64,000 nt of DNA from Pelagomonas calceolata (taxonomy: Eukaryota), in contig CAKKNE010000003.1 in NCBI GenBank assembly GCA_918797485.1, positions 4,774,001 through 4,838,000 on the forward strand, read 5' to 3'. A program made the position numbers and the translations under genes. Shown piece after piece: positions 7,860 through 62,066 of this stretch (the stretch's first letter is position 1; each line of letters opens with the position of its first letter). The notes under the pieces were generated by a model that was not told the DNA's origin, ran no database searches, and worked only from the letters and a program-made list of their open reading frames with translations.

Positions 7860-8218
7860 GCCCTCTTCCCTCCCCCAAACTCCCGTTAGCTATCCTGACC
7901 GTGACTGAGCAAGGAGCTAAGCTCTTACTAGTAGGGCTAAGGCCGGCGGGAGCCTGAGGTTTTTCAACTTTAAAACCTTTTTGAAAACTTGAACCAGACG
8001 GATTCAAGTTCGGTCCAGAATACTAGTGCCAGTGAATATCAGACCGTAATTCCCGCTCTGCCACCGAGCGCCTTCGAGCGGTGAACTCCACGTAGGAGGT
8101 GCTCTACGACGAGTCGTCGCGGCGCGCCTACGACGCCGCGTCCGAGTCCGGGCTCGACTAGATAATAAGTCGACTCGGATAGTGACTCCAGACGAGTCAA
8201 ATATATCTATATGTCTAC

Positions 8219-11200
8219 TTACTTTTCCACGAGAAGCGCCTCGAGCCGCGCGACGCGCCGTTCGAGGCCGTCGTGCTTCGCCGCGAGCGCCGCGAGCGCC
8301 GCCGCGAGGACGGGCGCGGCGCGGCCGTACGCGACGTGCTTGAAGCCGTCGGCGTCGTCGTAGACGAGCGACGGGAACGCCTCCTCGACGCGCTGGGCCA
8401 CGAAGCCGACGTCGCGGCGCGCGGGGAAGTTCCGCGCCGGGAACTCGTCCCTTTTGTAGGAGAACGCGTACGCGCCGAGGCTCCCGTTGCGGAGCGCGCC
8501 GAGGCACGCGGCGCCATCCAATACCGCCAGGTCGCGCTTGAAGCGCGCGTCGGACGAGTCGATGTACGCGCCGGAGCCCATGACCGTCCCCCCGACCACG
8601 ACCGACCCTCCGACGAAGGCGTCGCTCTTCACGTCCAGCGCGCCGCCCACGTTGACGTTCCGGGGCGCGTGCACGGCCGCGTCCGCGTCCACGTAAAGGC
8701 CGTCCTCGGCCTCGAGCGCGCCGCCGTCGCCCGCGACGACGAGCGCGCGCCGACTCGCGTCGAGGGACCCGACCAGCACGACGTCGGCGGCGACGAACTC
8801 CAGGCCCGCGGCGCCGCCGCCCTCGAACTGCCCGTCGCGGATGACGTGGCCGCGCGCGTCGACGTCGCCCGCGAGCGCGCCGACGGCGAGCCGCGGGATG
8901 GCGACGGCGTGGTCGGCGCCGGCCGCGCACCAGGCCTCCGCGGCAACCAGGGCCCCGTCTTCCCCGAAGACGGCCGCGGCGCCGCGCGCGGGCGCGTCGA
9001 CGTACGTCAGCTCCTCGACGGCGAGCTTCTCGAGCCCCTCGACCGAGCCGCCCTCGATCCTCGCGTTCTTCAGGCGCGCGTTGTTCGCGAAGTCGAGGTC
9101 CCCCACGATGGTCGCGGCGCCGAGACGTTCGACGTGCAGCGTGCGGTCGCGGTAGTACAGCTCGGGCGTCGCGCCGAGCGCGCCGCCCGGCCCGACCAGG
9201 ACCGGGCGCTCGAAGCCCTCCGGGGGATTGCTCTTGGTCCCGGGGGCGTGGTCCAGCCGCAGCACCTGCGCGGCGACCTGGGCCAGGCCCGTCGCGGAGC
9301 CGCCCTCGATGCGCGCGTCCTTGATCGCGTGGCCGCCCATGTGCAGGGGCGCGTCGACCGAGGTCGTGACCATGAGCCGCCTGCGTGCAAATGAGCCAGT
9401 GAGCCGCATGCTGACTCGCGGGCGGACGCACGGCAGTCGACATGTCGCGACGAGGGCGCGCAGCGAACGTCGAGGCGTACGCCCATGCGAAGGCGCCGCC
9501 GCGAAAGTTGACGCCCGCACCGGGAGCCGCCCGACGCGCAGCCGCAGCGACGGCGACTCTTTGGGACCGCCCTTGACCCGGTCGACGGAGATAAAGTCCG
9601 CGTCGGCGTCGAGGAACCCCTTGGGGCCGTAGAAGACGACGCCGCTTTGTTGGGAGTCGCCGGTCCGGCTCGACAGCCGGCCCGCGCGGACGGCGTGCGG
9701 CCCGACGTCCAAGTCGGCCGCCGCGTCGAGCCGCGAAACGCCGACGAACTCCGTCACCGACGACCGCGTCACCGCCGCGCCGGCCGCTGCGACCGCGCCG
9801 GCCGCGTCGCCGCCGATCGCCGCCCAGCGGCGATCGCCGCCCTGGTAGAAGACGCGCGTGCTCCCCGCGGGGACGACGTGGCCGTCGAGCGTCGCCGCGT
9901 CGCCGTCCGAGTTCCGCACGACGAGCTGCCGCGCGTCCGGCCCGCCGTCGCCCTCGACCGACATCGCGTTGCCGCTGCCCCGCCGCCCGTCCTCCAGGAT
10001 CTCGACGTACGACGCGCCGGCCGGGACGGCCACGCGCGCCCCGGCCTTCGCCTCCGTCCGCTGGAGCCTCACCGCGCCGCCGACCGCCAGGTCGCCGCCG
10101 AAGACCGCGCCGCCGGCCGACCGGACGCCGCCCCGGGCGACGAGCGCGCCGGACGCGTCGACGCTGAAGACCGACTGGCCCTTGACGACGCCATCGACGA
10201 GGCGCGCCGCGCCGCGCGCGAACGGCGTCGGCGGAGCCAGCGCCGGCGCCTCGAGCGTCAGCACGCTGCCGCCGAACTGCGCGTGCGTCGCCGAGGCCCG
10301 GAGGGGCGCGCCGCCGGCGGCCCTCGAGGCCGCCTCGACGCCGCCGTCCTCGAGCGCGAGCCCGCCCCTGAGCGTCAAGGCGCCGCTCCGGACCTCGAGG
10401 CCGCCGTCGACGCGGAGCCCGCCGGCGCCCACGTCCACGCCGCCGCCGTGGACGCGGAGCCCGCCCGCCGTGACGCGCACGCCGCCCGCGAGCACGTCGA
10501 GGGCGCCGTCGCCGCGGACCGCGAAGACCTCGTTCGTCCCGCGGAACGCCGCGACGATGGGGCCGTCGCCGTCGCGCCGCTCGAGCCGGAGCGCCGGCGC
10601 GGCGCCGGCGCCGCGCGCCGTCGCGCCGGCCGTCGCGACGAGCGCGTCGGCCGTCGCGACGCCGCCCTCGAGCGTCACGCCGGCCGCGGCGACCGCGCCG
10701 GCGACCGTGAGCGAGCCGAACGACCCCGGCCCCTCGCTCGCGAGGCCGGCCCGGCCGACCGCGACCGGCTGGTCTTTGGCGACGCGCAGCGCGGGCGCGT
10801 CCGCCGGGCCCGCGACCAGGAGGTCGCCCTTTGCGCTCGCGAACGCGGCGCCGCCCGAGAACGTCGCCGGGCCGCGCGCGTCGAGCGCGCCGGCGACGGC
10901 CACGCCGCCGTCGAACGCCGCGGCCCCGGCCGCGCGGATGTGCCCGTCGCCGCGCACGGCGAGCACGTCGCCGCCCCGCCCGCCGGCGCCCACGCGCAGG
11001 TAGTGGAAGTCCGGCGACGCCGCGCGCTTCGCCTCCAGGCCCAAAATCGTGCCCGAGTAGAACGGGCCTTCACTCCGATACAATTGAAGCGTGTCCGCGT
11101 CCTTGTTGTCGTCGCAGGCGTCCCGCCGCCAGCCCGCGCGGCACCGGCACTTTCCCGTCGCCAGGTCGCAGTCGCCGTGGTTCGAGCACGGCGCGTGCTC

Positions 11201-11764
11201 CCGGACGTTGGACGCGACCGCGTCCTTCAAGGTGCACTGTGGCACGTCCCAGGCGTCGCCCGGGAGCGTGGACTCGCACTCGAACGTCCCGAGGGCGGGG
11301 TTGCCGCCGTGCGGCGCGTGCGCGTCGACCGGCGCCGGCGCCCACTCGTCGAAGGTGACGAGCCACCCGTCGGTCGTCTGGGAGCAGGACGCCTTCTGGA
11401 CCGTCGGGAGCGAGCTGATCGCGCGGCCGCACGTCGCGGCGTCGAGCACCGCCGGCAGCAGCACGCTCTCGCCGAGGAACCCGAAGCGCAGCCGGCCGTC
11501 GACCTCGCCGCCCGTCGGCGCCGTGACGGTCAGCGCGATCGCGCGCGACACCTGGTTCTGCGTCAGCGGGTCGTCGCCGCGCGGGCAGTGGATCTGCTCG
11601 CAGGCGGCGCCCGTCACGCCCGGCTGGCAGATGCAGAACGAGGTGGAGAGGGTGGCGTCGGGCGCCGAGCAGTAGCCCCGGAAGTTGCAGTGGGCCGGGC
11701 AGGCCGCGCGCACGGCCGCGCCGAGGCCGACGGCGACGAAGGCGAAGGCGCGGCGCCGCCCCAT
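8219..11764 (-). CDS. Secreted EGF-like/mastigoneme-like protein with Gly-rich beta repeats and a C-terminal peptidase S74 (intramolecular chaperone) domain; intron 9381-9530
   Basis: Signal peptide MGRRRAFAFVAVGLGAAVRA; EGF motifs (CPAHCNFRGYC, CPRGDDPL, CSNHGDCDLATGKCRC); SDARFKRDL...GFVAQRVEEAFPSLV...VAY followed by a terminal coiled coil. Confidence 0.8.
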   Translation of the reverse strand: MGRRRAFAFVAVGLGAAVRAACPAHCNFRGYCSAPDATLSTSFCICQPGVTGAACEQIHCPRGDDPLTQNQVSRAIALTVTAPTGGEVDGRLRFGFLGESVLLPAVLDAATCGRAISSLPTVQKASCSQTTDGWLVTFDEWAPAPVDAHAPHGGNPALGTFECESTLPGDAWDVPQCTLKDAVASNVREHAPCSNHGDCDLATGKCRCRAGWRRDACDDNKDADTLQLYRSEGPFYSGTILGLEAKRAASPDFHYLRVGAGGRGGDVLAVRGDGHIRAAGAAAFDGGVAVAGALDARGPATFSGGAAFASAKGDLLVAGPADAPALRVAKDQPVAVGRAGLASEGPGSFGSLTVAGAVAAAGVTLEGGVATADALVATAGATARGAGAAPALRLERRDGDGPIVAAFRGTNEVFAVRGDGALDVLAGGVRVTAGGLRVHGGGVDVGAGGLRVDGGLEVRSGALTLRGGLALEDGGVEAASRAAGGAPLRASATHAQFGGSVLTLEAPALAPPTPFARGAARLVDGVVKGQSVFSVDASGALVARGGVRSAGGAVFGGDLAVGGAVRLQRTEAKAGARVAVPAGASYVEILEDGRRGSGNAMSVEGDGGPDARQLVVRNSDGDAATLDGHVVPAGSTRVFYQGGDRRWAAIGGDAAGAVAAAGAAVTRSSVTEFVGVSRLDAAADLDVGPHAVRAGRLSSRTGDSQQSGVVFYGPKGFLDADADFISVDRVKGGPKESPSLRLRVGRLPVRASTFAAAPSHGRTPRRSLRALVATCRLPCVRPRVSMRLTGSFARRRLMVTTSVDAPLHMGGHAIKDARIEGGSATGLAQVAAQVLRLDHAPGTKSNPPEGFERPVLVGPGGALGATPELYYRDRTLHVERLGAATIVGDLDFANNARLKNARIEGGSVEGLEKLAVEELTYVDAPARGAAAVFGEDGALVAAEAWCAAGADHAVAIPRLAVGALAGDVDARGHVIRDGQFEGGGAAGLEFVAADVVLVGSLDASRRALVVAGDGGALEAEDGLYVDADAAVHAPRNVNVGGALDVKSDAFVGGSVVVGGTVMGSGAYIDSSDARFKRDLAVLDGAACLGALRNGSLGAYAFSYKRDEFPARNFPARRDVGFVAQRVEEAFPSLVYDDADGFKHVAYGRAAPVLAAALAALAAKHDGLERRVARLEALLVEK
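9381..9530 (-). mobile_element. Introner element, 150-nt in-frame GC-AG intron
   Basis: Minus strand reads TSD gcggctcc, then cggtgcgggcgtcaac...ctcactggctcatttgcacgcag, then TSD gcggctca (7/8). Length is a multiple of 3, so it is hidden inside the ORF. Confidence 0.85.
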
Positions 11765-12125
11765 CCGGCCTCTCCTTCTTGGCCGCAGTGGCGGGGGTGG
11801 GCGTGGCAGCCCCCTTTTTTGACGATTTGGGAGCTGGTGTCTCGGTCGCACCAGGGGGAAGCCCTCCTGTTTTGGTCTAGCTCATCAGGCTGGCTTTGGT
11901 GAGACAACCAAACTTGTATGGTACCTCTATGACATTGGTACAGTAAGCACTCGGATGTTCGTCCGCTAGATGAGTGGAGGTACAGTAGCTGTCCGTATAG
12001 GGAGGTATGAGAACCTGACCGTATAGGTCATAGATTAGGGGTCTGGACCGTAAGATACGTATCTCATCTCGCTCCGTATCTCCTCTCCGTGCCTGGTGCC
12101 GGACTGGCCCGCATTTGATATCGGC

Positions 12126-14810: not shown

Positions 14811-15082
14811 TGATGGTGCCGCCCCTAAATTTATTTCATGGGTAGTAATGGTAGTAGGCCCAGAATGCCGGCAGGGTGGAATTGACGAACCGGCTGGCTG
14901 AGAGTCATCGTCGCTTTTGCCCCCGGCGCAACAACGCAGTGACACACTTAGTGACACGTGGGGGGGAGAGAGAGGCCTCGCAAACCCTAATTGAAAATTA
15001 CTTGATAACCAGCTAGCGGCCTTAAGACACTAGCAAGCTTAGCTCGACGAGCCGGCCACAGGTAGGGTACAAGTTGTACAGC

Positions 15083-16615
15083 ATGAAGTTCGGCGCGGAC
15101 CTCAAAAACAGCGTCGTGCCGGAGTGGGCGCCGGGCTACATCGCCTACGACGCGCTCAAGGCGCAGATCAAGGCCATCAGCGGCGCCGAGGCGGACGAGC
15201 GGGACGCGCTCGAGGAGACCTTCTTCGCGACGCTGGAGGAGGAGCTGGAGAAGGTGAACCGGTTCTACCTGCAGAAGATCGGCGAGTTCGACGCGGCGCT
15301 CGCCGCGCTCGAGGCGCGCAAGCCGCGGAGCGCGTCGGGCGACGCGCTCGGCACGCCCGCGACGTCGGACCACCGGCGCAACGCCATCAACTTGCACGCC
15401 CAGATCGGGCAGCTGCAGGCGTTCGTCTGGCTGAACACGCAGGGCTTCGAGAAGATCGTGAAGAAGTACGACAAGTTCTCCGGCCTGCGCCACACGCCGC
15501 AGGCCAAGGCCCCGGACTTCGAGGCGCGGCTCCGGGGCGAGGTCTTCAAGTCCGAGCGGCTGGACGCGTGCCTGGAACGGTTCAAGATGGCGCGCGTCGT
15601 GGACAGCGAGACGCCGCACCATCTCGAGATGAAGCTCGTGTCGGGGTCCGCGAACAAGCCCCTCGCCGAGGAGATCGCGGCGCGGCTGGGCGTGCCCCTC
15701 TCGCCGGCGAAGGTGCGCCGCTTCAACGACGGCGAGGTCAACATCCAGCTCTGCGACAGCGTGCGCGGCGCGAACGTCTACATCCTGCAGCCGACGTGCC
15801 CCCCGGTGAACGACCACCTGGTCGAGCTGCTCCTCCTGGTGTCGGCGGCGCGGCGCGCGTCGGCGGCCACCGTGACCGCGGTGGTGCCGTACTACGGGTA
15901 CGCGCGCCAGGACCGCAAGGACCGGAGCCGCGTGCCCATCTCGGCGGCCGACGTCGCGCGGATGATGGAGGCCATGGGCGTCGACCGCGTCGTGTGCGTG
16001 GACCTGCACTGCGCCCAGATCCAGGGCTTCTTCGGGCCCCGGACGCCCGTGGACAACCTGTTCGCCGCGCCGATCGCCGTGACCTATTTCAACATGAAGG
16101 ACCTGGTCAAGCCCGTCGTGGTCAGCCCGGACGCGGGCGGCGTCGCGCGCGCCAAGGCGTTCATGGAGGGCTTCGGCCGCCTGCCGGACCCGCCGCAGGT
16201 CTCGCTCGCCGTCATCCTGAAGCAGCGGGCGGAGGCGGGCGTCGTCGGCACGATGCACCTCGTCGGCTCGGTGGAGGGCTGCGACTGCGTCATCGTCGAC
16301 GACATGATCGACACGGCGGGCACGCTGACCGCGGCCGCGAACGAGCTGCGCGCGTTCGGCGCGCGGCGCGTCTTCGCGTTCGCGACGCACGGCCTCTTCA
16401 GCGGGCCCGCGGCGGACCGCATCGAGCAGTGCGTGCTCGAGGAGTGCGTGGTGGCGAACACGGTGCCGCTAGCCGCGGCCGTGCGCGAGAAGACGCGCAA
16501 GATCCGCCAGGTCAGCGTCGGCAAGCTCGTCGAGGGCGCCATCCGCGGCATCCAGTGCGGCACGTCCGTGAGCGCCCTCTTCACCCAGGACATGGCGGCG
16601 GACCTCCTATCCTAG
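15083..16615 (+). CDS. SPX domain - ribose-phosphate pyrophosphokinase (PRPP synthetase) fusion
   Basis: SPX part: MKFG...PEW..GYIAYDALK, ELEKVNRFY, LNTQGFEKIVKKYDK. PRPS part: RFNDGE, VPYYGYARQDRK, DLHCAQIQGFF, VSPDAGG, VDDMIDTAGT, ATHGLFS. Confidence 0.92.
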   Translation: MKFGADLKNSVVPEWAPGYIAYDALKAQIKAISGAEADERDALEETFFATLEEELEKVNRFYLQKIGEFDAALAALEARKPRSASGDALGTPATSDHRRNAINLHAQIGQLQAFVWLNTQGFEKIVKKYDKFSGLRHTPQAKAPDFEARLRGEVFKSERLDACLERFKMARVVDSETPHHLEMKLVSGSANKPLAEEIAARLGVPLSPAKVRRFNDGEVNIQLCDSVRGANVYILQPTCPPVNDHLVELLLLVSAARRASAATVTAVVPYYGYARQDRKDRSRVPISAADVARMMEAMGVDRVVCVDLHCAQIQGFFGPRTPVDNLFAAPIAVTYFNMKDLVKPVVVSPDAGGVARAKAFMEGFGRLPDPPQVSLAVILKQRAEAGVVGTMHLVGSVEGCDCVIVDDMIDTAGTLTAAANELRAFGARRVFAFATHGLFSGPAADRIEQCVLEECVVANTVPLAAAVREKTRKIRQVSVGKLVEGAIRGIQCGTSVSALFTQDMAADLLS

Positions 16616-16863: not shown

Positions 16864-17053
16864 TGCGATAAATAGGGCGAATACCCCCCCTACTATACCC
16901 TTCCTTAAGTCTACACTTAGACACACCACACACGCAACGCGCAATCAAACACCGCAAACCAAAACTAGTTAGTGTATTTTAAGGTAGCTCCTCGGCAGAC
17001 TATCTCAGCCGCCGTAGTACTCCCAAACTTGAAGGTGCGTACTCCTCTGGTCT
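16864..17053 (+). mobile_element. Degenerate solo LTR, same family as 59607-59823
   Basis: Aligns by eye, in inverted orientation, with 59626-59823 (ataaatagggcgaataccccccc...aaggtagctcc...ggtgcgtactcctctggtct). Begins with TG. Confidence 0.7.
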
Positions 17054-18793: not shown

Positions 18794-19203
18794 CAAAGAG
18801 TAGTAGTAGTATGTAGTCTTTGTTTGCGGGTAGCCTGAGTGGCGTCGTGCCGGCCTTTTTTTTTGGCCAGGTCGTCAATTCCGCCGTGCCATGTGCGAGT
18901 GCTCTGGCGGTCACCAGTGAGGTGAAAACAGTGACTACCCTAGATATATATCTTCAATATTCAAGCCTCTGTTTTCTCCCAAAAAGGACGTTAGGTATAA
19001 CTCAACTCGCTTTAGCCTACTGCGGTACCGTAGGTACCGTAGGTACCTACGGTAGTAAACTTTAGGTATTCATACCGGTACGATTCATACCATTTCAAGT
19101 GACGAGGCGCGCTCAGCACAAAAGGACCTCCTACCTCTCCGCGGCACCGGCGACCGCAAGCGCAATCACGCGGAACTTCCTGCTTGTCTCCGCGGCGACC
19201 GCA

Positions 19204-19764: not shown

Positions 19765-20299
19765 GGCCAGCGGAGACGGGAGCATTCAGAAGCACGTAGC
19801 CCGCCAGCCACCGCCCCGCAAGCACACTAATATACTATAGATGATGACACCGCCGTGACTGTTCAAGTTTAGGGCATCATGATCCTGACCTGCAGGAGAA
19901 ATAGGGATGTGGCACTTGACCGACCCCCCAGAGGGGAGATTAAGGTTTGAACTTCACTATTCGGGGGGTCAGCCGGAGAGGTTTGTTTTCAAAAGCCATT
20001 TCGCCTAGGCCTGCATATATTTATATGTATGTATGTTATATGTATAAATAAACGGGTTTTCTCCCAATGGCAGGTGCGATTCGCAGATACGCCTCCACAG
20101 CGTGGAATAAACCGCTTCCGAATTCACTGGCAGAACTCATTATAGCCGAGACCAGCCGTCACACGTACCGTCACCGGCTACTTCGTGTCGGATCGAGTCG
20201 GAGTCGGAGTCGGGGCCTTCCGGAGCCTGAGGTCTGTACCGGAGCCTTGGGGAGGGGAGTGGAGAAGAGGGGCAGCCTTGCGACTAAAATGCGCTATTA

Positions 20300-23460: not shown

Positions 23461-24034
23461 GCGAGCCCCCCGGTCGCCTCGGAAAGCGCGGGCCACGGGC
23501 GCCGCCCGCGAGGGGCTTAATGATGCGCAATCAACCATCGTGCTAAAAAGTTAGATTCGAAGCTGTGCGAAGTGAGCCTCTGCGTCCTCAGTCCTCCGGC
23601 GACTCGAGGGCCCTGAGCCCGGGGGCTACTATACGCGGTTTGGGGGCTTTCCGACGCTGCCAGTGCCCAGTACATCCTGTGACCCGTACCGTTAACGGTA
23701 CGGGTCACACAGGCCCTAGTGAGTTTTGCGCCACTAGCATTTCGACTCGACGAGTGCCGCGGTCAGGGGCGCGACGAGAGGACTAATCTACGGACAGGAA
23801 CAGTTGGCAGTCGCGCAAGTCGACCTGCGGCTTGTCTCTGCTATGGCTCGACCCCCCTACTACGCCCCCTACTAGAGGGGGCTACCCCACTACCACTACC
23901 CCCAAAACCACCTCCTGGGGAGCTTCTACAAACCTCGTCATGCTGCGGGTTGGGCCTTCCTCGCCGCCTCCGCGTACCAACGTACCAAATTTGTGCGATG
24001 CTCGGATGAAAACCGTGCTGCCGAGCCGCAACTC

Positions 24035-25273
24035 ATGCGGTGGATCCCGTTTCTCGTCGGCTGCGTCGCTGGTGACCTGCTGCAGCGGGCCCAGCAGCTC
24101 GCGAGTCTCGCCGTCGAGGAGTTTCGAACGGAGGCGCGCCCCCTCGTGCGCTGCCTCCGCTGGGCGGAGCTGCCAGCGGCGCTGGGCCGCGAGCTCGTCG
24201 ACGGTACGTCGCGCAGCGACTGGGAGACCTGCATCCCAGTCTTCCGGCCCCACGCAACGCATCCGGCGTGCGGCGCCTGGGACCGGGCCGCGCCCTTCTG
24301 CTTCGACGGCGCCGGCGCATGCCCGGTGTCACAGCCGGCTCGGGGCGGCCTCTTCGCGGGCGCCTGGCCTACGAAGGCGGCGGGCCCCGGCAGCTTCTAC
24401 GCGAAAGGGAAATGGTACAATAGCAGCGATACGCTCCCAGGCTACGCCGCGCCCTGTTACGCGGGCGCCGGCTGCTTCCCTTCGGCCATCGGCATTGGCC
24501 TTGCTAAGTCGGGGACCTCGACCCTCTTTGCGCTCTTCCCTGAGCATCAGAGGGGCAAGGAGCCAAGGTTCTGGGAACCCGCGCGCGGAATGCCCTGTCG
24601 CTTCCCGAACATGGACTGCTACCTGCGGTCAGTCCCGGCTTCACACTCGTCTCCTTTGACCATCGATGCGACCGTGCCTCTGACGTGGCATATACACGCG
24701 CCTCTCTTCCTGTCCTTTGCACAGCCGCGCACCAAATTAATAGCCACGGTCCGCGACCCCCTCGACCTCCTGGAGTCGCACTACTATTTCTCGTATCACC
24801 CCGGATCAGATAAATATATGAACGTCTCGATCTTCGGCCGCGCACTACTCAGCGACGTCGAGCTCTTCCTCGACTGCCACGCGGCGTCGGCCTGGGCCCT
24901 AGAACATCATCTGGCCTGGGACCCGGGCTGCGTGTGGACGTACGACCTCGACGCCAGTGGGCTCTTGCACTCCCCGCTGCGGGATATCCTCTACGCCGAT
25001 GGGCTCCACCTGTGGCTGGCGCGCTTCCCGCCCAACCAGATCCTGTGGCTCGACACCCGCGACATCCTCGAGTCCGCGGGCCTCATCGCGACGTTCCTCG
25101 GCGTCGACGCGGGGCGGCTCGTCGCGGTCGAGTTGCCCAAGAACAAAAACACAGGGAACACCCGCGGGCTCTTTGCAAGCCTGGGCCCCAATGTCACGCG
25201 CCTTCTTCGCCTCGTCACCGAGCCGACCGAATACCTTCTGGAGGCCATGAGGCGAAGGAAGCCGGTGCCGTAG
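24035..25273 (+). CDS. Secreted/Golgi sulfotransferase (heparan-sulfate-sulfotransferase-like fold)
   Basis: 5'-PSB loop IGLAKSGTSTL, KEPRFW, 3'-PB KLIATVRDP...SHY; short hydrophobic N-terminus. Confidence 0.75.
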   Translation: MRWIPFLVGCVAGDLLQRAQQLASLAVEEFRTEARPLVRCLRWAELPAALGRELVDGTSRSDWETCIPVFRPHATHPACGAWDRAAPFCFDGAGACPVSQPARGGLFAGAWPTKAAGPGSFYAKGKWYNSSDTLPGYAAPCYAGAGCFPSAIGIGLAKSGTSTLFALFPEHQRGKEPRFWEPARGMPCRFPNMDCYLRSVPASHSSPLTIDATVPLTWHIHAPLFLSFAQPRTKLIATVRDPLDLLESHYYFSYHPGSDKYMNVSIFGRALLSDVELFLDCHAASAWALEHHLAWDPGCVWTYDLDASGLLHSPLRDILYADGLHLWLARFPPNQILWLDTRDILESAGLIATFLGVDAGRLVAVELPKNKNTGNTRGLFASLGPNVTRLLRLVTEPTEYLLEAMRRRKPVP

Positions 25274-29073: not shown

Positions 29074-29212
29074 ATTTATAGCAAGGAGCGTCGTGGTCTT
29101 CGTGAGATATGCAGAGTACCGTTTACCCTACCGGGGTACATGGACGCCCTGCTGCTATTGAGTAAGTATGTAAGTTAATGAATTAATGTCAATGCATGAT
29201 TGCAAAAGTGCC

Positions 29213-29358
29213 AGTGAACTTCACTGGCAAGTTGACTAGGAACTCAGGCTTGCTTCAGGTTCACTCTCAGGCTGGTGTTTTACGGCGACCGCGACTACCT
29301 AACGCCGGGCTTGATCCAACTTGGATAAGTAAAAGGTTCATGATATGGGATATGGGGG
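29213..29358 (-). repeat. Degenerate copy of dispersed repeat A, interrupted by footprint-type words
   Basis: Matches 49473-49570 (aggttcac...ggtgttttacggcg...cgccgggcttgatcca.cttggataagta). Confidence 0.75.
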
Positions 29359-30127
29359 GCTGTGCGGCAATCAAACATAGGAATAGGAAAACCTAAGATA
29401 ATTAATACCTCTCCATACATAAAAAACTTCAAGTTGAATAGAATGTTGCTTATAAACCCCCCTACCAGGGGTCAGTTTCGATGCCCAAGGCAGCCCGGAG
29501 GGTGGCATAGGAGGGGGAGGAGTGTACTCGATGGGCCCCACCCCGGCCCCTCCCCTCGTCCGTGCAGTCCCCTTCATTTTCGAGGTAATTAAATAAATAA
29601 ATAAATAAATAATTATTTCACCGGCCGGCGTAACCGTCACGGTGACTACGGTAACCTGCGCGACTGCCCTTTGCACTGGCAACCTAGTTGACACCAAGGG
29701 CCGGATAATAGTACACCGACCCGGGAAAGATATGCAAGTACCAGACTGTCTTTCCCGAATGTATGATGTAGAGGACGGTGGACAAGAACCCACCGAACCC
29801 AACAATCTGATCTTGAACCTGACTGGAGATTTACAAGAGCCGCCAAAGATGCCTACCCTTGTACATTGACAGCAGAGACGATCTTGAGATCTATAAGTGG
29901 AAAAAGACAAAAACCTTAGAAGAAATGACCATGAGGGTCCACAGGTCCGAATTGCGATTCTACCCGTTCAGTTTGACGAATAAGAACGAGATTCCAGTGA
30001 AAATCGTTAAAGAATTGGTTACTGATGGATATGCGGTGATGTTGATTTCAACGGTAAATTAGCTGAAGACCCGGCTTGAGTTCCAGGAAGGGGGGAGTGA
30101 GGTGAAAACTCCCCTAGATATATATCC

Positions 30128-30335
30128 GCAACGCCATAGCCCCCTATCGCCGGATCTATGGCTACATTACTCAGGCTCTCGCCTATCAGCACGCTATATC
30201 AGCCGGCACGTGCCCGAGGCTGATATTTCCCTATATCCCGTATCTTCTTACTTATCCAAGTGGATCAAGCCCGGCGCTAAGTAGGCGCCGTAAAAACACC
30301 GGGGTGAACCTAAAGTAAGTTCACTTCACCAGGGT
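30128..30335 (+). repeat. Dispersed repeat A (~200 bp), probable DNA-transposon end
   Basis: Near-identical reverse complement at ~49465-49656. Both copies terminate at ccc(t/c)(g/a)gtgaagtgaac. Confidence 0.85.
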
Positions 30336-31397: not shown

Positions 31398-32892
31398 TGT
31401 TCGGTTTTACAACTGTCCAACAACCTCGAGCGAGACTGCCCCCGTACGTGACGCGAGTGTTGGGGATAAACACGTACAAAAAGATAATGCCAATAGGACA
31501 AAGTCGAAGGCGGTGGTGGGAAGATACCGGTACCGTGGCACCTGCTATGATATGGCCACGTATCCTTGTATTTACGTCTATGATGCTCCGGGTATTAACC
31601 CCAGCAGCCTTTGGCAGTTATGGAGCTGGAATCTTATATTCCTGAGCTGGGATTAGTCCCCAAGTTTATACGACCTGTTCGACCTGTCGCGGATCTGTAT
31701 GATTTGTTGGCGAGTTAAATTGTCTAACCAATTTGGCTCAGGCACTGCCAAAGGGGCTTATGGTAATTCCCCTAAAGGTGGGGTTTTCCCCGGAACTTCT
31801 TGTTCAATGAAAATAACGACCTTCCACAACAACTTGTTACTCAAGGGGTGCAAAGCACCGTACCGTTTAGGACGGGAGCACAGGGTATGTGAGGTTTGCA
31901 TCTTATAATTGTCTCCACTTCGACCCCCCCCCTACCATCCTGGCCTACCTAGAAAAGGCCGAATATACACTCGGGCACCCGCACGATGCGAGGATAGCCG
32001 CGCAATTGAGCCGTATCGTATACTTGAAGCAGGTGCATCACTTGGGCTGCCCGAGCGCCCGGAAATGCGGGATACTCTGCTTTTCAGCATAAAAAAAGAC
32101 GCACGTAGCGCCAAGATCCAGCTACAGTCGAATCCCCCACCTTCGTACGCACAAACTCTCGCCGGGCGTGCGCAGAAGCTGCCCTCCGCGCGGCTGCTAT
32201 CCTGGTACGACCGGGCGAAGCTACGTTCATCTTGGCGTATCGTAGTGGCCGTCTTAGCGTCGCGAGAGACCGATTCGAGGTTCTCGGCGTACGCGGCGAC
32301 ATAAATACATCGACGACTTTCGGGACTGAGGACAAGTGCAACCCTTTAGAAGCCACAATTGGAGCTGCGCTACGATACCAAACCCTGCGGAGCCTCACTG
32401 CAACCGAAATCGGGGCGGGAACCGTAAATGTGGCCAAGATGGTAAGGGGGGGGTCGTTGTGTCCCCAATAGTACATAATTTCCTTAAGACTCGGATATTG
32501 AACATCCAGCTACAGTTGATCCAACAGCACCTGCACCTGCTCCTAATTCACCTTCTCAACCTCCGAGACAATTACGACCAGGTACTATTCTTATACTGAT
32601 GGTATGGTTTGTTTTGGCGCGGGGGCGCGTGGTCCGGGGTCCCTGGGGTTGGCGCCCGTTGTGGCAACGGCCTCTTTTCCACTTATAAATCTCCCAAATT
32701 TTATCTTAGCTTCACTATCCTAGTCTCATTTATCTTGGTTAGATACCCGGATAGAATAGGCCTAGTGAATACGGTACTTGCTGGTACCTACGGTACCTAC
32801 GGTACCTACGGGACCTCTAAGTTGGCAAAAAAGTTGGCGTGAAGGCTGCCCATGCTCCGTCGCGGATCGCTCCGTGACTCTGGCGGTGGACC

Positions 32893-35307: not shown

Positions 35308-35645
35308 TACTTCTAGCTCAGGCTATTGCAATGGAAATACACGTCTAGTAGGATCCCAAGGTTCAACTGAGACGTATCCAAGCACAACCCGTACTTGTAT
35401 TACCCGCCTAGGCTACCGTAGGTACCGTAGGTACTTCCCATCCTAGGGTACTCCGATATCCCCTTAGTAGGGGGAAGTCGCCTCTCACTCCTAATTATTA
35501 TCATCCTGAGTCACCTTTTATTGACGGACGCAATTCCCCGTCACAAACCCCATCAAACATGGGAGAAACTATTTCGTTAGACGACTACACTACGCGGCTG
35601 CCGGGGAAGTCCGGAGCCACACACTCTATTTCCCTATGCATCGCA

Positions 35646-35658: not shown

Positions 35659-36283
35659 CGCTCTGCGTGGTGTCTAACGGAACTGCCCAGAGGCATTGAA
35701 CAACCCTCCGGACGTTTTAAAACCTAACCTAAATCATTATAAAACATCACTAAACGTTATTCAATTACCAAACTCCACAAATTAATATATTAAACGCAAA
35801 ACTCAGAAGGCTCGCAATCTCGAAATTAACATAAGATGGCGGAACCTCCTGTACCAGCCGACGGCAACCCTTCTACGGAAGACCAGGGGGAAAACAAACC
35901 CTGGGACGAACTATTCGTCAACAATCCGGACGAATACTTCGGTAATACGAACTCACAAAAAGAATCGAGACCTAAAATTGGCGAACCAAAGGAGGTCGCC
36001 CTAGGTCGAATGACCTGGGGAGTGTCAAAACCGACACCCCCTACTCTCTCCGAGTCTATACAGCGAGTGTCTTTGACGCTACGGTGTAACAACAGTTCAC
36101 TATAAAACACTCTCGTAGTCAGGTCTATCCAGCCTTCAGCTGGTTAGCTAACACCCTGCTACTTTACATAACGCTGCGACATACTCTTGCTACCTACCTA
36201 CGGTACCGTAGGTACGGTACTATACGAGCTTATACAGCACCAGCTTGTACAACTTGTGAGCTTGTGCACCGGCTGATCTGATA

Positions 36284-39632: not shown

Positions 39633-39670
39633 TTTTTAGGTCTTCCTTCAAGTTAATTTATTTATTTATT
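39633..39670 (+). mobile_element. Extreme 3' fragment of the LINE family at 59440-59490
   Basis: tttttaggtcttcctt followed by a (TTTA)n tail, with a CAAGTT insertion. Confidence 0.65.
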
Positions 39671-47266: not shown

Positions 47267-48865
47267 GCTTCTGGGCAGCCGAGTTATCTCCTCATTTTTT
47301 TGTGCATGGGTCGTGTCGATGGCGTCGATCTTCGAACATGTTCCTGCGTGCTTGCATGCATACAGGTGCCTATATAGAGGGAGAAACCTCTAGCCCTTCT
47401 AACTACGCCACTCTCGTAGTGGGTTGCTAAGCGCCATCTCTAGTTATGTACAACTTGTATTAGGGATGCCTACCGCAGTACCGTACCGTAGGTACCAGGA
47501 TTAGACATAGTAACCGTAGTTAGCCCCACTGGCGCTTCAACTCATACTAGCTATATCCCCTTTTTACGCCAGCGGGGAGAAGCGTCCACCGGCGGATGCC
47601 TCGGTACAAGCATGGCGTCCAACGGACTAAATATAGCAGAGTTTCGAGGCTTAGTGTACTGATAGTCTCGGACAGAGTAGTCGTAATCGAGGAATTAGGG
47701 GTGCCTAGCGTGGTCTCTGGCTACTGCGGGCCCACGGGGGTTGCGGAACAGTGCCGCCCGTCGAAGCAGCACTCTCGGAATCGGCTCTAGACGACGCACG
47801 AACACCACCGCGGAGCTCTAGCCCGGCCGCCCACGACTTCAAGGCAACGCGTCCCATCACGACAAAAGAGGGCAGTTTTGGAGCCCCAGTAATTCACCTC
47901 GTGTGTGCGGACCAGGAGGCTGGCAAACGACGCAAGTTTTGGCTTAGTTTTGAGGTAGCGGTACAGCTCTTCTCGACCTGGAACTCCTAACTCACATTTC
48001 GCCACATCCTTCCAAGTTCTGGCGCCATGGACATGCTTATGGATGATATCGCAGGCATCTGGCCGTCCGGTCGCCTTCCACACCACGATTTAGTGCTCCG
48101 TCGAGGCTGTCGAGGCCTTATCCGCGGGCTGCCGCCAGAGCAGTAACAAGCGTCAAGACCTACCCGAAAAGCACGCGGACATCGAGCTAGTGACCCGTAT
48201 GCATTGTCGGAGCGGTCGCACGGAGCTTACCACTGCACCATAAGTCTATGTGGGGCCGCTCTACGACGGCTGTCCGAGAGTGTCCGCGTGTTGACGTCAG
48301 ACCGTCGTGTTCATCAGCGGCGTCATGTTGGCGTCGATACCAGGTGGGTGGAGGCGTCGTAGGACGCCCGCGCTGGTACTTTGGGCAGCCGCAATACCGC
48401 TGCCCCGGTGCGCGCGACTATGGCTTCGCAGAGGCGCGACTATGCTCTCGCAACCTTCGCCGGGCTGTAACTCGGCACGATGGAGGAGTTAGAAGACGAT
48501 CCAAGTAGCGAAATGCTCGCAATCGAGCTGTACAGGCCGGCCGTTTACGCCGCTCGTACCTTTGATCTACTTTATGTAGGCTAGCTGCGTATGTACGTGT
48601 ACTATGCCGTTTCATAGTCCCCCCCCCTACTGTGTCTAATCCAAGTACCGCAGTAGGACCCTGCCGTACCGTAGGTACCTACGGTACCGTGCTAGAAAAA
48701 TACCCCTATCCTTACCCTAGTAGTCCCTATTCCCTCCTAGACTATTAAGAACGCGTATGAGCACAACCTCTCTCCGTATTTTAGTACCACGGGGTCTGGC
48801 AACTAGGGAATCAGTGCAAAGCACTGCCGTGCTCCTAGGCACCTCACTGCCTAGTATTTTTAGCA

Positions 48866-49464: not shown

Positions 49465-49656
49465 CCCAGTGAAGTGAACTTACTTTAGGTTCACCCCGGT
49501 GTTTTTACGGCGCCTACTTAGCGCCGGGCTTGATCCACTTGGATAAGTAGAAAGATACGGGATATAGGGAAATATCAGCTCCGAGCCGTCGGCTGACGCG
49601 CGTGCTGATAGGCGAGTAATGTAGCCCAGATCCGGCGATAGGGGCTATGGCGTTGC
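49465..49656 (-). repeat. Dispersed repeat A, inverted copy
   Basis: Reverse complement of 30128-30335. Confidence 0.85.
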
Positions 49657-49973
49657 AGACGATGCCCAGGGAGTTTTGCCTCGCGTTAGTAAAACGCCGA
49701 AACTCAAATACAATACGACCAAAATCCGTGGTTCTTTGCGGTCGATTCTCGTCACGGGCCCCTTTCGTAAGCCACAAACTCGTGACAAAGGCCAATTCGT
49801 CATCCAAAGAGCTCTAGGGCAGCCTGAGTTGAAAATCCCACTAATGATTTGGGTTCCGGGCCCTCAGGCTGGCCGTAGCGCAGCAAATAGGGCTTAATAC
49901 GCCGGCCTCTACTAGTCAAATCTGGAAAATCGCCGAGTAGAAAATGTGGCTACAACATCTGGTTTTCAAGTTC

Positions 49974-55000: not shown

Positions 55001-55391
55001 GCAGCGGCACAGCCACGCGGCGACCGAATGGCGGGAATTTTTTGCTGAGACGTAGGTTCCGTATATTCTGAAATTCATAGCCGCCGGGGCCAGTTTTACT
55101 TTTGATGAACTTTTGCATTACTTCTTGGCCTTCAAGTTCCCGGGCCCGGGCCCGGGCCGACTCGGAGTCCTCAGGCTAAGTGAGATAGTAGATTCAAGTT
55201 GATTTTTTATTGTATATAACATCGCATGCATTCACATATGATCTTCAGTGAAATATGTCTGATTGGAACGCGGCTCAAGAAGTAGGGACGCAGGGTAGGA
55301 AGGGCTAGAGGGTTTCTCTCTCTCAGGGCTATATATCCTTCAGGCTCTATATATATCCTAGGATAGGTTTCGCTCAGAGTCTCTGGATGAA

Positions 55392-57968: not shown

Positions 57969-59490
57969 ATGGGCAAGAAAAGCAAAATTACCGGTAAGGT
58001 GGATAACGGCCTCAAGGAGAGGCTCCGGGCCAATATGAAGGCCAAGAAGAAGGGTAACCCCTGCTACGCCTTCGGTATGGCCCTAAATCCCAAGATGAGG
58101 TCGGTTCTGGGGGAGGAGCACCGCGCGCTCCTGGTCGTAAAGTCGGGGGACCCGGACATTGACTTGTACATCCGCTCGTTGTTCGCGACGGGAGGCTGTG
58201 GCCAGTATTCGAAGGACTCCGTCGAGGATGGAGAGGATTATATTATGAAGATGGCCGCATTAAAAAAAGTGGTCCCCCCGCTCCGGGCGTCCGAGATTTT
58301 GAAGGTGGATAGCGCCACCCTCATGGCCGCGTGTGAGGACACCGAGGGGTCGCAGAAATCGCCGTCGGGTGCGGCGCCGGCGGCCGCGGCGTCGCCGGCG
58401 CCGGCGCCGTCGACGGAAAGCAAGGCCCCCGAGAGCCCGATCCCTATTGATCAGTCGCCGCTGCAAGCGCCGGCGCCGGCGCCGTCGAGCCCCCTATCGT
58501 CGGCGAAGCTCGTCGACCAGAAGAAGTGGGGTGATCGGTGCGCGACGGGGGCGTCGGACGACGACGAGTATGAAATCGGGCGCCTGCCCGACGCTGATCA
58601 AAAAGCCAATATCATGACATCGAGGTCGCGTTGAATGTCATTTATCGGCGCCTGCTCGGCGTGGAAGCGAAAACGGCTTCGGTCGCCGTCAGGCACGAAC
58701 TGGGTGTCGCGTCCGTCGCAACTCGTATAGACGCCGCGGCGCTGAAATTCCGCAACAACATCTTGTCGTTGGACCCTCGGGATTTCCTCGTTCGCCGGGT
58801 ATACGACGGCCTGATGAACGATTCTAAAGGTCGCGGATCGTCGAGGAACGGGGCTTTGTTCCTGGATAAGCTTGCGTTAGAAGCGAATTGGCCTGGGCCT
58901 CTGAAAAAACCGGCCGCGAAAAAGTTCGTCAATGAATTCGTCGCATCGCGCCGAGTTTCCGAGCTCGTCGATGGCTTCAAGAGAATGACGACTCTCCGCA
59001 ACATGAGCGATTGGGTCGAGAAGGAACGTTTCGGCTTGCCGGAATATTTACTCAGAACGTGCCCCTCGTCTCTTCGGGAAGGGCGGAGGTTGAAGACGAA
59101 GTTCCGATTGGGTTGCCACGATCTCCGGAGCTCGAGCTCCCGAACGCAGCTTGTCCGCAACGCGCAATGTCCCTGTTGCAAATCCCGCGAGTCGGAAACG
59201 ATTCAACATGCCCTACTTGAATGCTCGGCTTTTACGAAAGAACGTGACACGTTCCTTGAACGGTTCTACGAGTTGCACCCTATCGCGCGTGGCTTGAGCC
59301 CCGAAGGTCTTTGCGACGTCCTAATGAGTGACGACTTACCTCACGAGACTGAGAATACTATGTATAGATACCTTATTGCTATTTCGAGGCTCCGGTTGGG
59401 CATCCTGACCGAGCGGGGAGAAGGCTCCTAGGAGCTTGTTCCTTTTTTTAGGTCTTCCTTAATTTATTTATTTATTTATTTATTTATTTT
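57969..59490 (+). mobile_element. Internally deleted non-LTR retrotransposon (ORF1-like piece + ORF2 C-terminus + (TTTA)n tail)
   Basis: ORF 58631-59431 has RRLLGV...AVRHELG, KFRLGCHDL and the CCHC finger CPCC...ETIQHALLEC. The 3' UTR and (TTTA)n at 59463-59490 are shared with 61176-61458. Assignment of ORF 57969-58634 to the element is an inference. Confidence 0.78.
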
Positions 59491-59593: not shown

Positions 59594-59823
59594 TGGGCCC
59601 ATAACCTGCGAACTAGAATAATGCAAGACCAGAGGAGTACGCACCTTTGGGAGTACCGCGACGGCGGCGGCTGAGAAGTCTGCCGCGGAGCTACCTTAAA
59701 CTTGAAATACACTAAGTAGTTTTGGTTTTACGCCGGTGTTTATTGCGCGTGGCGTGTTGTGTGTGATGTAAGTGTATATAGAAGGGTATAGGATAAGGGG
59801 GGGTATTCGCCCTATTTATTGCA
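59594..59823 (-). mobile_element. Copia-type LTR (59607-59823, TG...CA) plus PBS (59594-59606)
   Basis: Minus strand tgcaataaat...ttcgca is directly followed by ggttatgggccca. A related solo copy lies at 16864. Confidence 0.75.
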
Positions 59824-61175: not shown

Positions 61176-61424
61176 TTGTTTGAATGCACGGCCTTTGAGG
61201 AAGAACGCGAGGTATTTCTTTCGAGATTATACTCGGTTTGCCCCCTCGCACGGCAATTGAATGATGAGTACCGTTGTCGGCTGGTCATGGGGGACAAGCT
61301 ACCCCGGGAGATTGAAAATCCGTTGTATCGGTATCTTATTGCTATTTCGAAGCTCCGGTTGGGTATCCTGACCGAGCAGGGAGAAGGCTCTTAGGAGCTT
61401 GTTCCTTTTTTTTTAGGTCTTCCT

Positions 61425-61455
<31 letters not shown>

Positions 61456-61458
61456 TTT
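61176..61458 (+). mobile_element. 5'-truncated LINE copy with a (TTTA)n tail
   Basis: FECTAFEEER...YRYLIAISKLRLGILTEQGEGS* and the 3' UTR are nearly identical to 59216-59490. Confidence 0.85.
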
Positions 61459-62066
61459 TCAAGTTCCTAGCGGGAAACGACCCTACAAAGCCCAAGTGAG
61501 GCTAAACTTGAACCGTGACCGGGCCCCATAAGTAACCTACATGTCTAGCAACCTAGATAACCGTACCTCGAGCGTGAGGGACATAGCGACGCTATTCCCG
61601 GAAGGAAAGCGGTTCGGCACAAAGCCGAGCGACTTGGTAAGCGGAGCAGCACTGAACTTGAATGTACAAATTACAGTACAATACCACACTTGGCAGGAGG
61701 ATGGCGGGGGGGGACTACTCCCGGCGCCATGACACTACCTACCACACCTCTTCAGGGGTCCCTGGTAAAAAATGGGGTTAGCTTCTTCAATTCAAGTTCA
61801 AGTTTAGACTACAAACCTCGGCATGGTGCTACCCTGGCTTTTTTTGCTATCCTCTTGACAGGGGGGGGGGCAGGGTGTTAAGTGTGAGTGTGAGACGCGT
61901 GAGACGCGTAGGTGTGGATGTGAGGACGGATTCTCACACCCTGGCTCCCCCCCCCTCTTGACACTAGGACAGTGTAAAGCTACCACTTGCTCATCATTTT
62001 TTTGACACAAGAGCACCCGGGACGCGGACCAGCCTGCGCGAGGTGAGTGCGGCCGCCGGGCAGCCC

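Follow-up and report, generated by a model that had tools for sequence, protein, structure and literature searches.

The 64,000-nucleotide stretch of DNA from the pelagophyte Pelagomonas calceolata analysed here (the window) has a G+C content of 65% and carries algal genes, among them genes for a kinesin/KIF9, a VPS15-like kinase, Psb31, a sigma factor and a dynein attachment factor. The best named matches of its PRPP synthetase are Aureococcus anophagefferens proteins (82-90% identity); the enzyme is encoded at 15074-16615 in fusion with an SPX domain, an arrangement common to many algal homologues. About three quarters of the sequence words of the window as a whole are found in marine metagenomes. 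A 1,210-codon open reading frame at 8219-11851 encodes a protein with EGF-like repeats and, at its C terminus, a Peptidase_S74 (endosialidase chaperone) domain. This gene and the kinesin gene are convergent, and their stop codons enclose a short spacer (Table 1) in which octamers of unrelated appearance follow one rule: a dinucleotide XY, a C, the reverse complement of the dinucleotide, a G, and XY once more. Put differently, C-rc(XY)-G-XY is added behind XY, a 6-bp insertion that gives the word XY-C-rc(XY)-G-XY. The 16 words that the rule permits form a closed set, the reverse complement of each being another member. Exact words are here called scars.

A sequence-only reading of this DNA had reported eight such words in the spacer, as well as ATCATGAT at 19876 and 39745, and all of them are found where it placed them. 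Their excess in the spacer also stands, with eight words against a mean of 0.107 under a first-order Markov model and a maximum of 3 in 20,000 resamples; exact scars make up 13% of this spacer. In the ORF-defined intergenic DNA of the window (20,440 bp), the 14 words other than those with XY = CG or GC occur 93 times against 4.8±1.9 expected, a 19-fold excess, whereas in coding DNA (43,560 bp) the same 14 words occur 11 times against 8.7±3.0. The predicted enrichment over a Markov background in intergenic but not in coding DNA is thus borne out for the window. For low-CpG DNA (16,747 bp), Markov models of orders 1-3 predict 4.2-5.0 words, and 78 are present; 14 of the 16 words are represented, and the CG and GC words are at 0. 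These two words abound in coding DNA because of its composition (101 vs 70) but are scarce in intergenic DNA (4 against 2.0 by chance), which sits poorly with the excision origin favoured below. The use of XY otherwise roughly tracks dinucleotide frequency, except that TA is low too: TA, the target of Tc1/mariner elements, accounts for 7 of 227 scars. A polymorphic CG scar is present in the metagenome locus L003, although CG, GC and TA scars are under-represented in the intergenic DNA of the window.

The rule is specific in its spacer bases and in the length of its repeated unit. Among control octamers with the other 15 pairs of spacer bases, twelve pairs give counts of 1-7, while CC and GG give 19 each and GC gives 23; the last and highest is a cyclic permutation of the rule, made by tandem copies. 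When the repeated unit is 2 nt long the ratio of observed to expected words is 14, when it is 1 nt long the ratio is about 1, and words with units of 3-4 nt are too few (0-3) for a verdict. Near-variants of the rule are weakly enriched (ratios 1.1-2.1), and words with one mismatch show an excess of about 57 in intergenic DNA. The words are also arranged non-randomly, with seven period-6 tandems against 0.0 expected, 31 neighbours within 30 bp against 11.6 at random, and 13 of 95 scars that become visible only after others are removed, a nesting that occurs 0 times in simulations. However, the notion that the words saturate non-coding DNA was overstated, as 95 exact scars of 6 bp each amount to about 2.8% of the intergenic DNA.

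Could the words be transcription-factor sites or other cis-regulatory elements? Their confinement to non-coding DNA would fit such a role. However, fourteen dissimilar words are tied together by an internal symmetry rule, and they occur as polymorphic insertions within LTR and LINE remnants. Moreover, on approximate gene calls, word density is 0.5/kb in the 4 head-to-head spacers (1 word in 2,056 bp), 7.1/kb in the 5 tail-to-tail spacers (25 in 3,528 bp) and 4.6/kb in the 19 tandem spacers. The transcription-factor alternative that the sequence-only reading had kept in reserve thus fails, since its own spacer is bounded by the 3' ends of two genes and words are all but absent from head-to-head spacers; we regard a regulatory reading as largely refuted and highly improbable.

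The comparison of homologous copies draws on the window and on 16 metagenome loci (L001-L016, about 63 kb), gathered by a pattern scan of metagenome contigs, which together make up about 127 kb of related DNA; words are present in 15 of the 16 loci. An LTR roughly 230 bp long occurs in the window at 30098-30329 and 49469-49682, as fragments at 18916 and 29249, and in L001-L016; its termini are TG...(C/T)A, it contains a polypurine tract, and its 4-bp target-site duplications (TSDs) end in AG. The repeat at 30097-30329 was considered as a donor of the scars and discarded, as its polypurine tract and 4-bp TSD mark it as an LTR, and it served instead as a neutral substrate. LINE-like 3' ends with (TTTA)n tails and a weak zf-RVT match lie at 57969-59489 and 61180-61460, and L015 holds a short LINE-like copy with a 6-bp TSD. 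A perfect 32-bp palindrome followed by CTAG (window 23678-23722; L002 544-609) resembles a Helitron 3' end, and the region around it (23592-24255) has a summed contig depth far above single-copy in three metagenomes. A further repeat family, with several scars, is found in L001 as an 80-bp inverted pair (560-639 and 2574-2648), in L008 and L010, and in the window at 36052-36150.

A census of 163 de-duplicated indels across 212 alignments of homologous copies, from which alignments under 40 bp, short CpG-rich ones and short TA-array ones were left out, shows a peak at 6 bp (18 events, against 3 at 5 bp and 0 at 7 bp). The sequence-only reading had proposed that 6-bp indels should follow the rule, and 12 of the 18 carry an exact word, against a null of 5.1% exact matches from the same 11-offset scan at random positions; 3 of the others have one mismatch and 3 have two or more, and 2 of the 18 derive from GC-rich coding self-alignments. 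Longer indels are compounds of the same unit: a 12-bp indel that L006 and L011 share consists of a scar within a scar, and another of 18 bp is made up of three scars, the last with one mismatch. In a looser comparison (80% likeness over 20 kb), both of the 6-bp indels among the 12 listed of 337 fit the rule, one exactly and one with a mismatch, both in multi-copy repeats and against heavy GC-rich noise. The multi-copy LTR gives the direction of change. Each scar is found in one copy and is missing from the others, and the L006 copy holds up to five scars in about 230 bp; the scar is therefore the derived state and the change an insertion. L002, which is 95.6% identical over 2.4 kb, likewise lacks the scars at 18832, about 18926, 19862 and 19876. 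The words are thus derived, polymorphic 6-bp insertions that obey the rule, and in the 12 indels and the LTR copies they show what a flank-hairpin footprint should show, a derived insertion with an inverted copy of the flank.

The same process is visible in the spacer itself. Compared with assembled contigs (not reads) of four metagenome runs, it shows six indels, of which the only 6-bp one, after 7994, produces CA-C-TG-G-CA, and a loose end of one contig of run X5 has an AC scar nested in an AA scar. Wild contigs therefore show new scars inside the spacer.

Table 1. Positions in the window of the spacer and its scars, of sites that differ between copies, and of element E1.
Feature	Position	Strand	Remarks
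Spacer	7860..8218		Between 3' ends of kinesin gene (+) and EGF/Peptidase_S74 gene (-); 8 exact scars
Scar, XY=AC	7898..7905		Exact word
Scar, XY=TA	7926..7933		Exact word
Scar, XY=AG	7951..7958		Exact word
TT without scar in window	7969..7970		Loose ends of 2 contigs of run X5 continue TT-C-AA-G-TT
Scar, XY=AA	7986..7993		Exact word
CA without scar in window	7995..7996		One contig of run X9 (depth 6.6) has the insertion, giving CA-C-TG-G-CA
Scar, XY=TT	8003..8010		Exact word
Scar, XY=TG	8027..8034		Exact word
Scar, XY=TC	8141..8148		Exact word
Scar, XY=GA	8172..8179		Exact word
Scar, AA	17026..17033		Missing in paralogous repeat copy 59626-59823
Scar, AG	18832..18839		Missing in homologous locus L002
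Decayed scar, AC, one mismatch	18926..18933		In LTR fragment; missing in L002 and wild contigs
Two scars, TT at 19862 and AT at 19876	19862..19883		Missing in L002; first gap 7 bp in alignment
TG scar, then triple nest	29209..29236		CA in TT in AA scar; last base of AA scar changed
Scar, CT, in LTR copy	30170..30177		Missing in other LTR copies
E1 left target-site duplication, TC	31914..31915	+	Read from the sequence; empty site in L001
Element E1	31916..32461		546 bp, intact, non-coding, CAC...GTG termini; candidate CACTA/EnSpm-like MITE
E1 terminal inverted repeats	31916-31945 and 32432-32461		30 bp, 26/30 identical
E1 right target-site duplication, TC	32462..32463	+	Read from the sequence; empty site in L001
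Scar, TT	39647..39654		Missing in paralogous LINE tail 59445-59480
Hot spot	55131..55200		8 stacked, tandem or nested scars in about 70 bp
Scar, AA/TT	59699..59706		Missing in paralogous copy 16864-17053 (reciprocal case)

If the insertions are excision footprints, an element with C...G ends and a 2-bp TSD should exist, as the sequence-only reading had predicted, and E1 is a candidate for this donor type. Its terminal inverted repeats (TIRs), identical at 21 of 24 positions, rank first among the 121,550 CAC..GTG pairs that the window and loci contain, and its true ends had been masked in the TIR scan by two mismatches near the tips. L001 contains a paralogous empty site of E1 with a single TC and, since TC stands on both sides of E1, insertion duplicated XY. 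CA..TG ends with 2-5-bp TSDs mark the CMCT clade (PMC12730594), and CMC TSDs are given as 2-4 bp in bioRxiv 2026.08.26.747230. With its CAC...GTG termini, short TIR and 2-bp TSD with an empty site, E1 resembles the non-autonomous CACTA/EnSpm (CMC/CMCT) elements described in these two sources; a 3-bp TCC duplication can formally be read at its junction, at the cost of terminal TIR symmetry. Plant CACTA elements, in contrast, have CACTA/G ends and 3-bp TSDs (PMC4423477; PMC3193017), whereas E1 ends in CACTT and CACAA and lacks the strict CACTA/CACTG pentamer. TIR and TSD alone should not override transposase homology, as the same bioRxiv text warns, and E1 is best described as CACTA/EnSpm-like.

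E1 has relatives in L012 and L014. In L014 a second left end of the family begins with CAC (when a TA scar is discounted) and lies at the empty site of another repeat, while the right end, in L012, is decayed and its TSD is not readable; one LTR copy is inserted in the E1-family element of L012. One complete element thus faces about 95 scars. The scar form of E1's own site was found in 0 of the 16 metagenome loci, and no site with both element and scar alleles was seen. Pfam searches detected no transposase among 65 ORFs of the window and 70 further ORFs of the related DNA, and three long unannotated ORFs of L006 and L016 look like host genes. Patterns for the E1 ends, the E1 interior, the LTR and the hairpin gave nothing in the viral contigs or genome contigs scanned. 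The single viral match, L017, proved to be a tandem that arose by chance in a gene resembling that of a polymerase; scar words are not enriched in it (4, with controls at 4-35), and it has no match to PF02992. An Rfam search returned 0 matches.

We come back to excision as the origin of the words. That part of the earlier interpretation is strengthened by polymorphic insertions that follow the rule and by a C...G element with a 2-bp duplication and an empty site, but its corollary that much of the intergenic DNA was written by insert-and-excise cycles is too strong, with exact scars at about 3%. Judged from these sequence features, the words were quite probably left behind by the excision of CACTA/EnSpm-like elements, from a family that has C...G ends and a 2-bp TSD and is of the kind that E1 represents. 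Insertion would first duplicate XY, as the empty paralogous site shows for E1. On excision, the transposase would nick one base into the element on its non-transferred strand, and flank hairpins tipped by the terminal C would form; we infer this hairpin chemistry because the C and G are fixed whatever flanks them and the middle two bases copy the flank in inverted orientation. Opened by a host nuclease at two bases from the tip, each hairpin would leave a 3' tail of the form XY-C-rc(XY); the last two bases of the two tails would pair exactly, and gap filling and ligation would yield XY-C-rc(XY)-G-XY. Since the length of the TSD equals the opening distance, the two tails would always share their microhomology, and the uniformity of the product would follow. 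Renewed insertion and excision at one spot would build up tandem and nested scars, seen as the 12- and 18-bp indels. Artemis opens hairpins two bases beyond the tip. With scars removed, odd palindromes with arms of 5 or more are centred on C/G in 25 cases and on A/T in 9, and this surplus is compatible with occasional hairpin opening further out but may include decayed nests. Several long C/G-centred palindromes were considered as long P-nucleotides and turned out to be nested scars.

That excision passes through flank hairpins is established for hAT, Transib, RAG and Muta1, and it is host enzymes that open them (PMC5499845). The scars share with the products of these transposases (hAT Ac/Ds and Hermes; Transib/RAG; the MULE Muta1) an inverted flank copy and joining by microhomology (PMC5873905, PMC5499845). 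However, the palindrome of Ac/Ds footprints centres on the complement of the adjacent flank base rather than on an element base, and these footprints are heterogeneous, with 28 types in 128 clones in Candida (PMC5873905), whereas the scars centre on an invariant C/G that matches the element ends, keep both TSD copies intact and have one dominant 6-bp product. The proposed nick one base inside the element would thus be a departure, in a different register. A hAT-type 3-4-3 footprint, in which an inverted TSD stands between two TSD copies that each lack one base and which would be C..G-flanked, was rejected, as only 21 of 227 scars are so flanked and the flanking bases are near background and unconstrained. 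Tc1/mariner footprints (TA, 2-3 element bases, TA) resemble the scars in having a 2-bp TSD on both sides and in keeping terminal element bases (PMC4561436), but here the TSD is variable, one base is kept per end and the middle two bases invert the flank. This inverted copy indicates that the scars were not made by Tc1/mariner cutting.

A second family of scars does have TA as its target. In the window and loci, TA-CCG/CGG-TA accounts for 71 of 314 TA-N3-TA, TA-CC/GG-TA for 80 of 338 TA-N2-TA and TA-CCGTAGG-TA for 44 of 325 TA-N7-TA. These scars stack into arrays with 4-, 5- and 9-bp indels (window 19018-19055, 32780-32810, 35415-35435, 36195-36220, 47470-47495 and 48640-48690; L008, L010 and L012) and look like Tc1/mariner footprints of a putative CCG...CGG-ended element.

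It is possible, if unlikely, that the XY scars stem from excision of a C...G-ended element with a 2-bp TSD that either belongs to a family other than E1 or forms no covalent hairpin. In the latter variant, staggered cuts would leave unpaired one-base C overhangs, and polymerase-theta-like templated end joining would copy the flank in inverted orientation. E1 is tied to the scars only by its end bases and the length of its TSD; a C at the start is shared by many elements, among them the putative Tc1-like family that would have left the TA scars, and Tc1/mariner footprints keep element bases as well (PMC4561436). However, E1 is the only well-formed C...G element with a variable 2-bp TSD found in the window and loci. 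Templated end joining is usually heterogeneous, whereas here one product dominates and near-variants are only weakly enriched, and folding back with a one-base loop would be hard without a covalent link.

A transposon-independent origin appears more doubtful still. Repair at breaks with a 2-nt stagger (e.g. of the Spo11/topoisomerase type), where the C would be added and the end folded by an enzyme of the host, would accommodate scars that far outnumber intact elements, cluster and use almost any dinucleotide. However, no host enzyme is known to us that would place the same C at both ends every time, and the window does contain an element whose ends and TSD are as required. Moreover, the co-occurring TA-specific scars of Tc1/mariner form indicate that footprints do accumulate in this genome.

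No text describing such a footprint for the CMC/CMCT clade was found in the literature searched, outside which most of the older work on plant CACTA footprints falls. Nor did this literature, which misses most subscription papers, yield a description of the word pattern, and main-text passages of the Pelagomonas genome paper (PMC9481584) do not mention it. We give about even chances to the more far-reaching proposal that a CACTA-like pelagophyte transposase nicks one base inside its own end, seals a C-tipped flank hairpin and in this way is the main source of multi-base indels in non-coding DNA. If so, its cleavage register would be unlike that of hAT or RAG/Transib, the 2-bp TSD would make repair almost deterministic, and a globally abundant alga would keep a countable ledger of past jumps in which scars far outnumber surviving elements. 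The geometry of the scar also offers a sharp prediction for the position at which a CACTA-like transposase cuts. There is a caution in this as well, in that the most enriched intergenic octamers of this alga would be scars of mutation and not motifs of regulation. Excision as a rule leaves no trace or a messy one, while here each event would leave a self-verifying octamer, so that one genome may suffice to count, map and date past transposition, and the scars may serve as near-homoplasy-free markers in ocean metagenomes.
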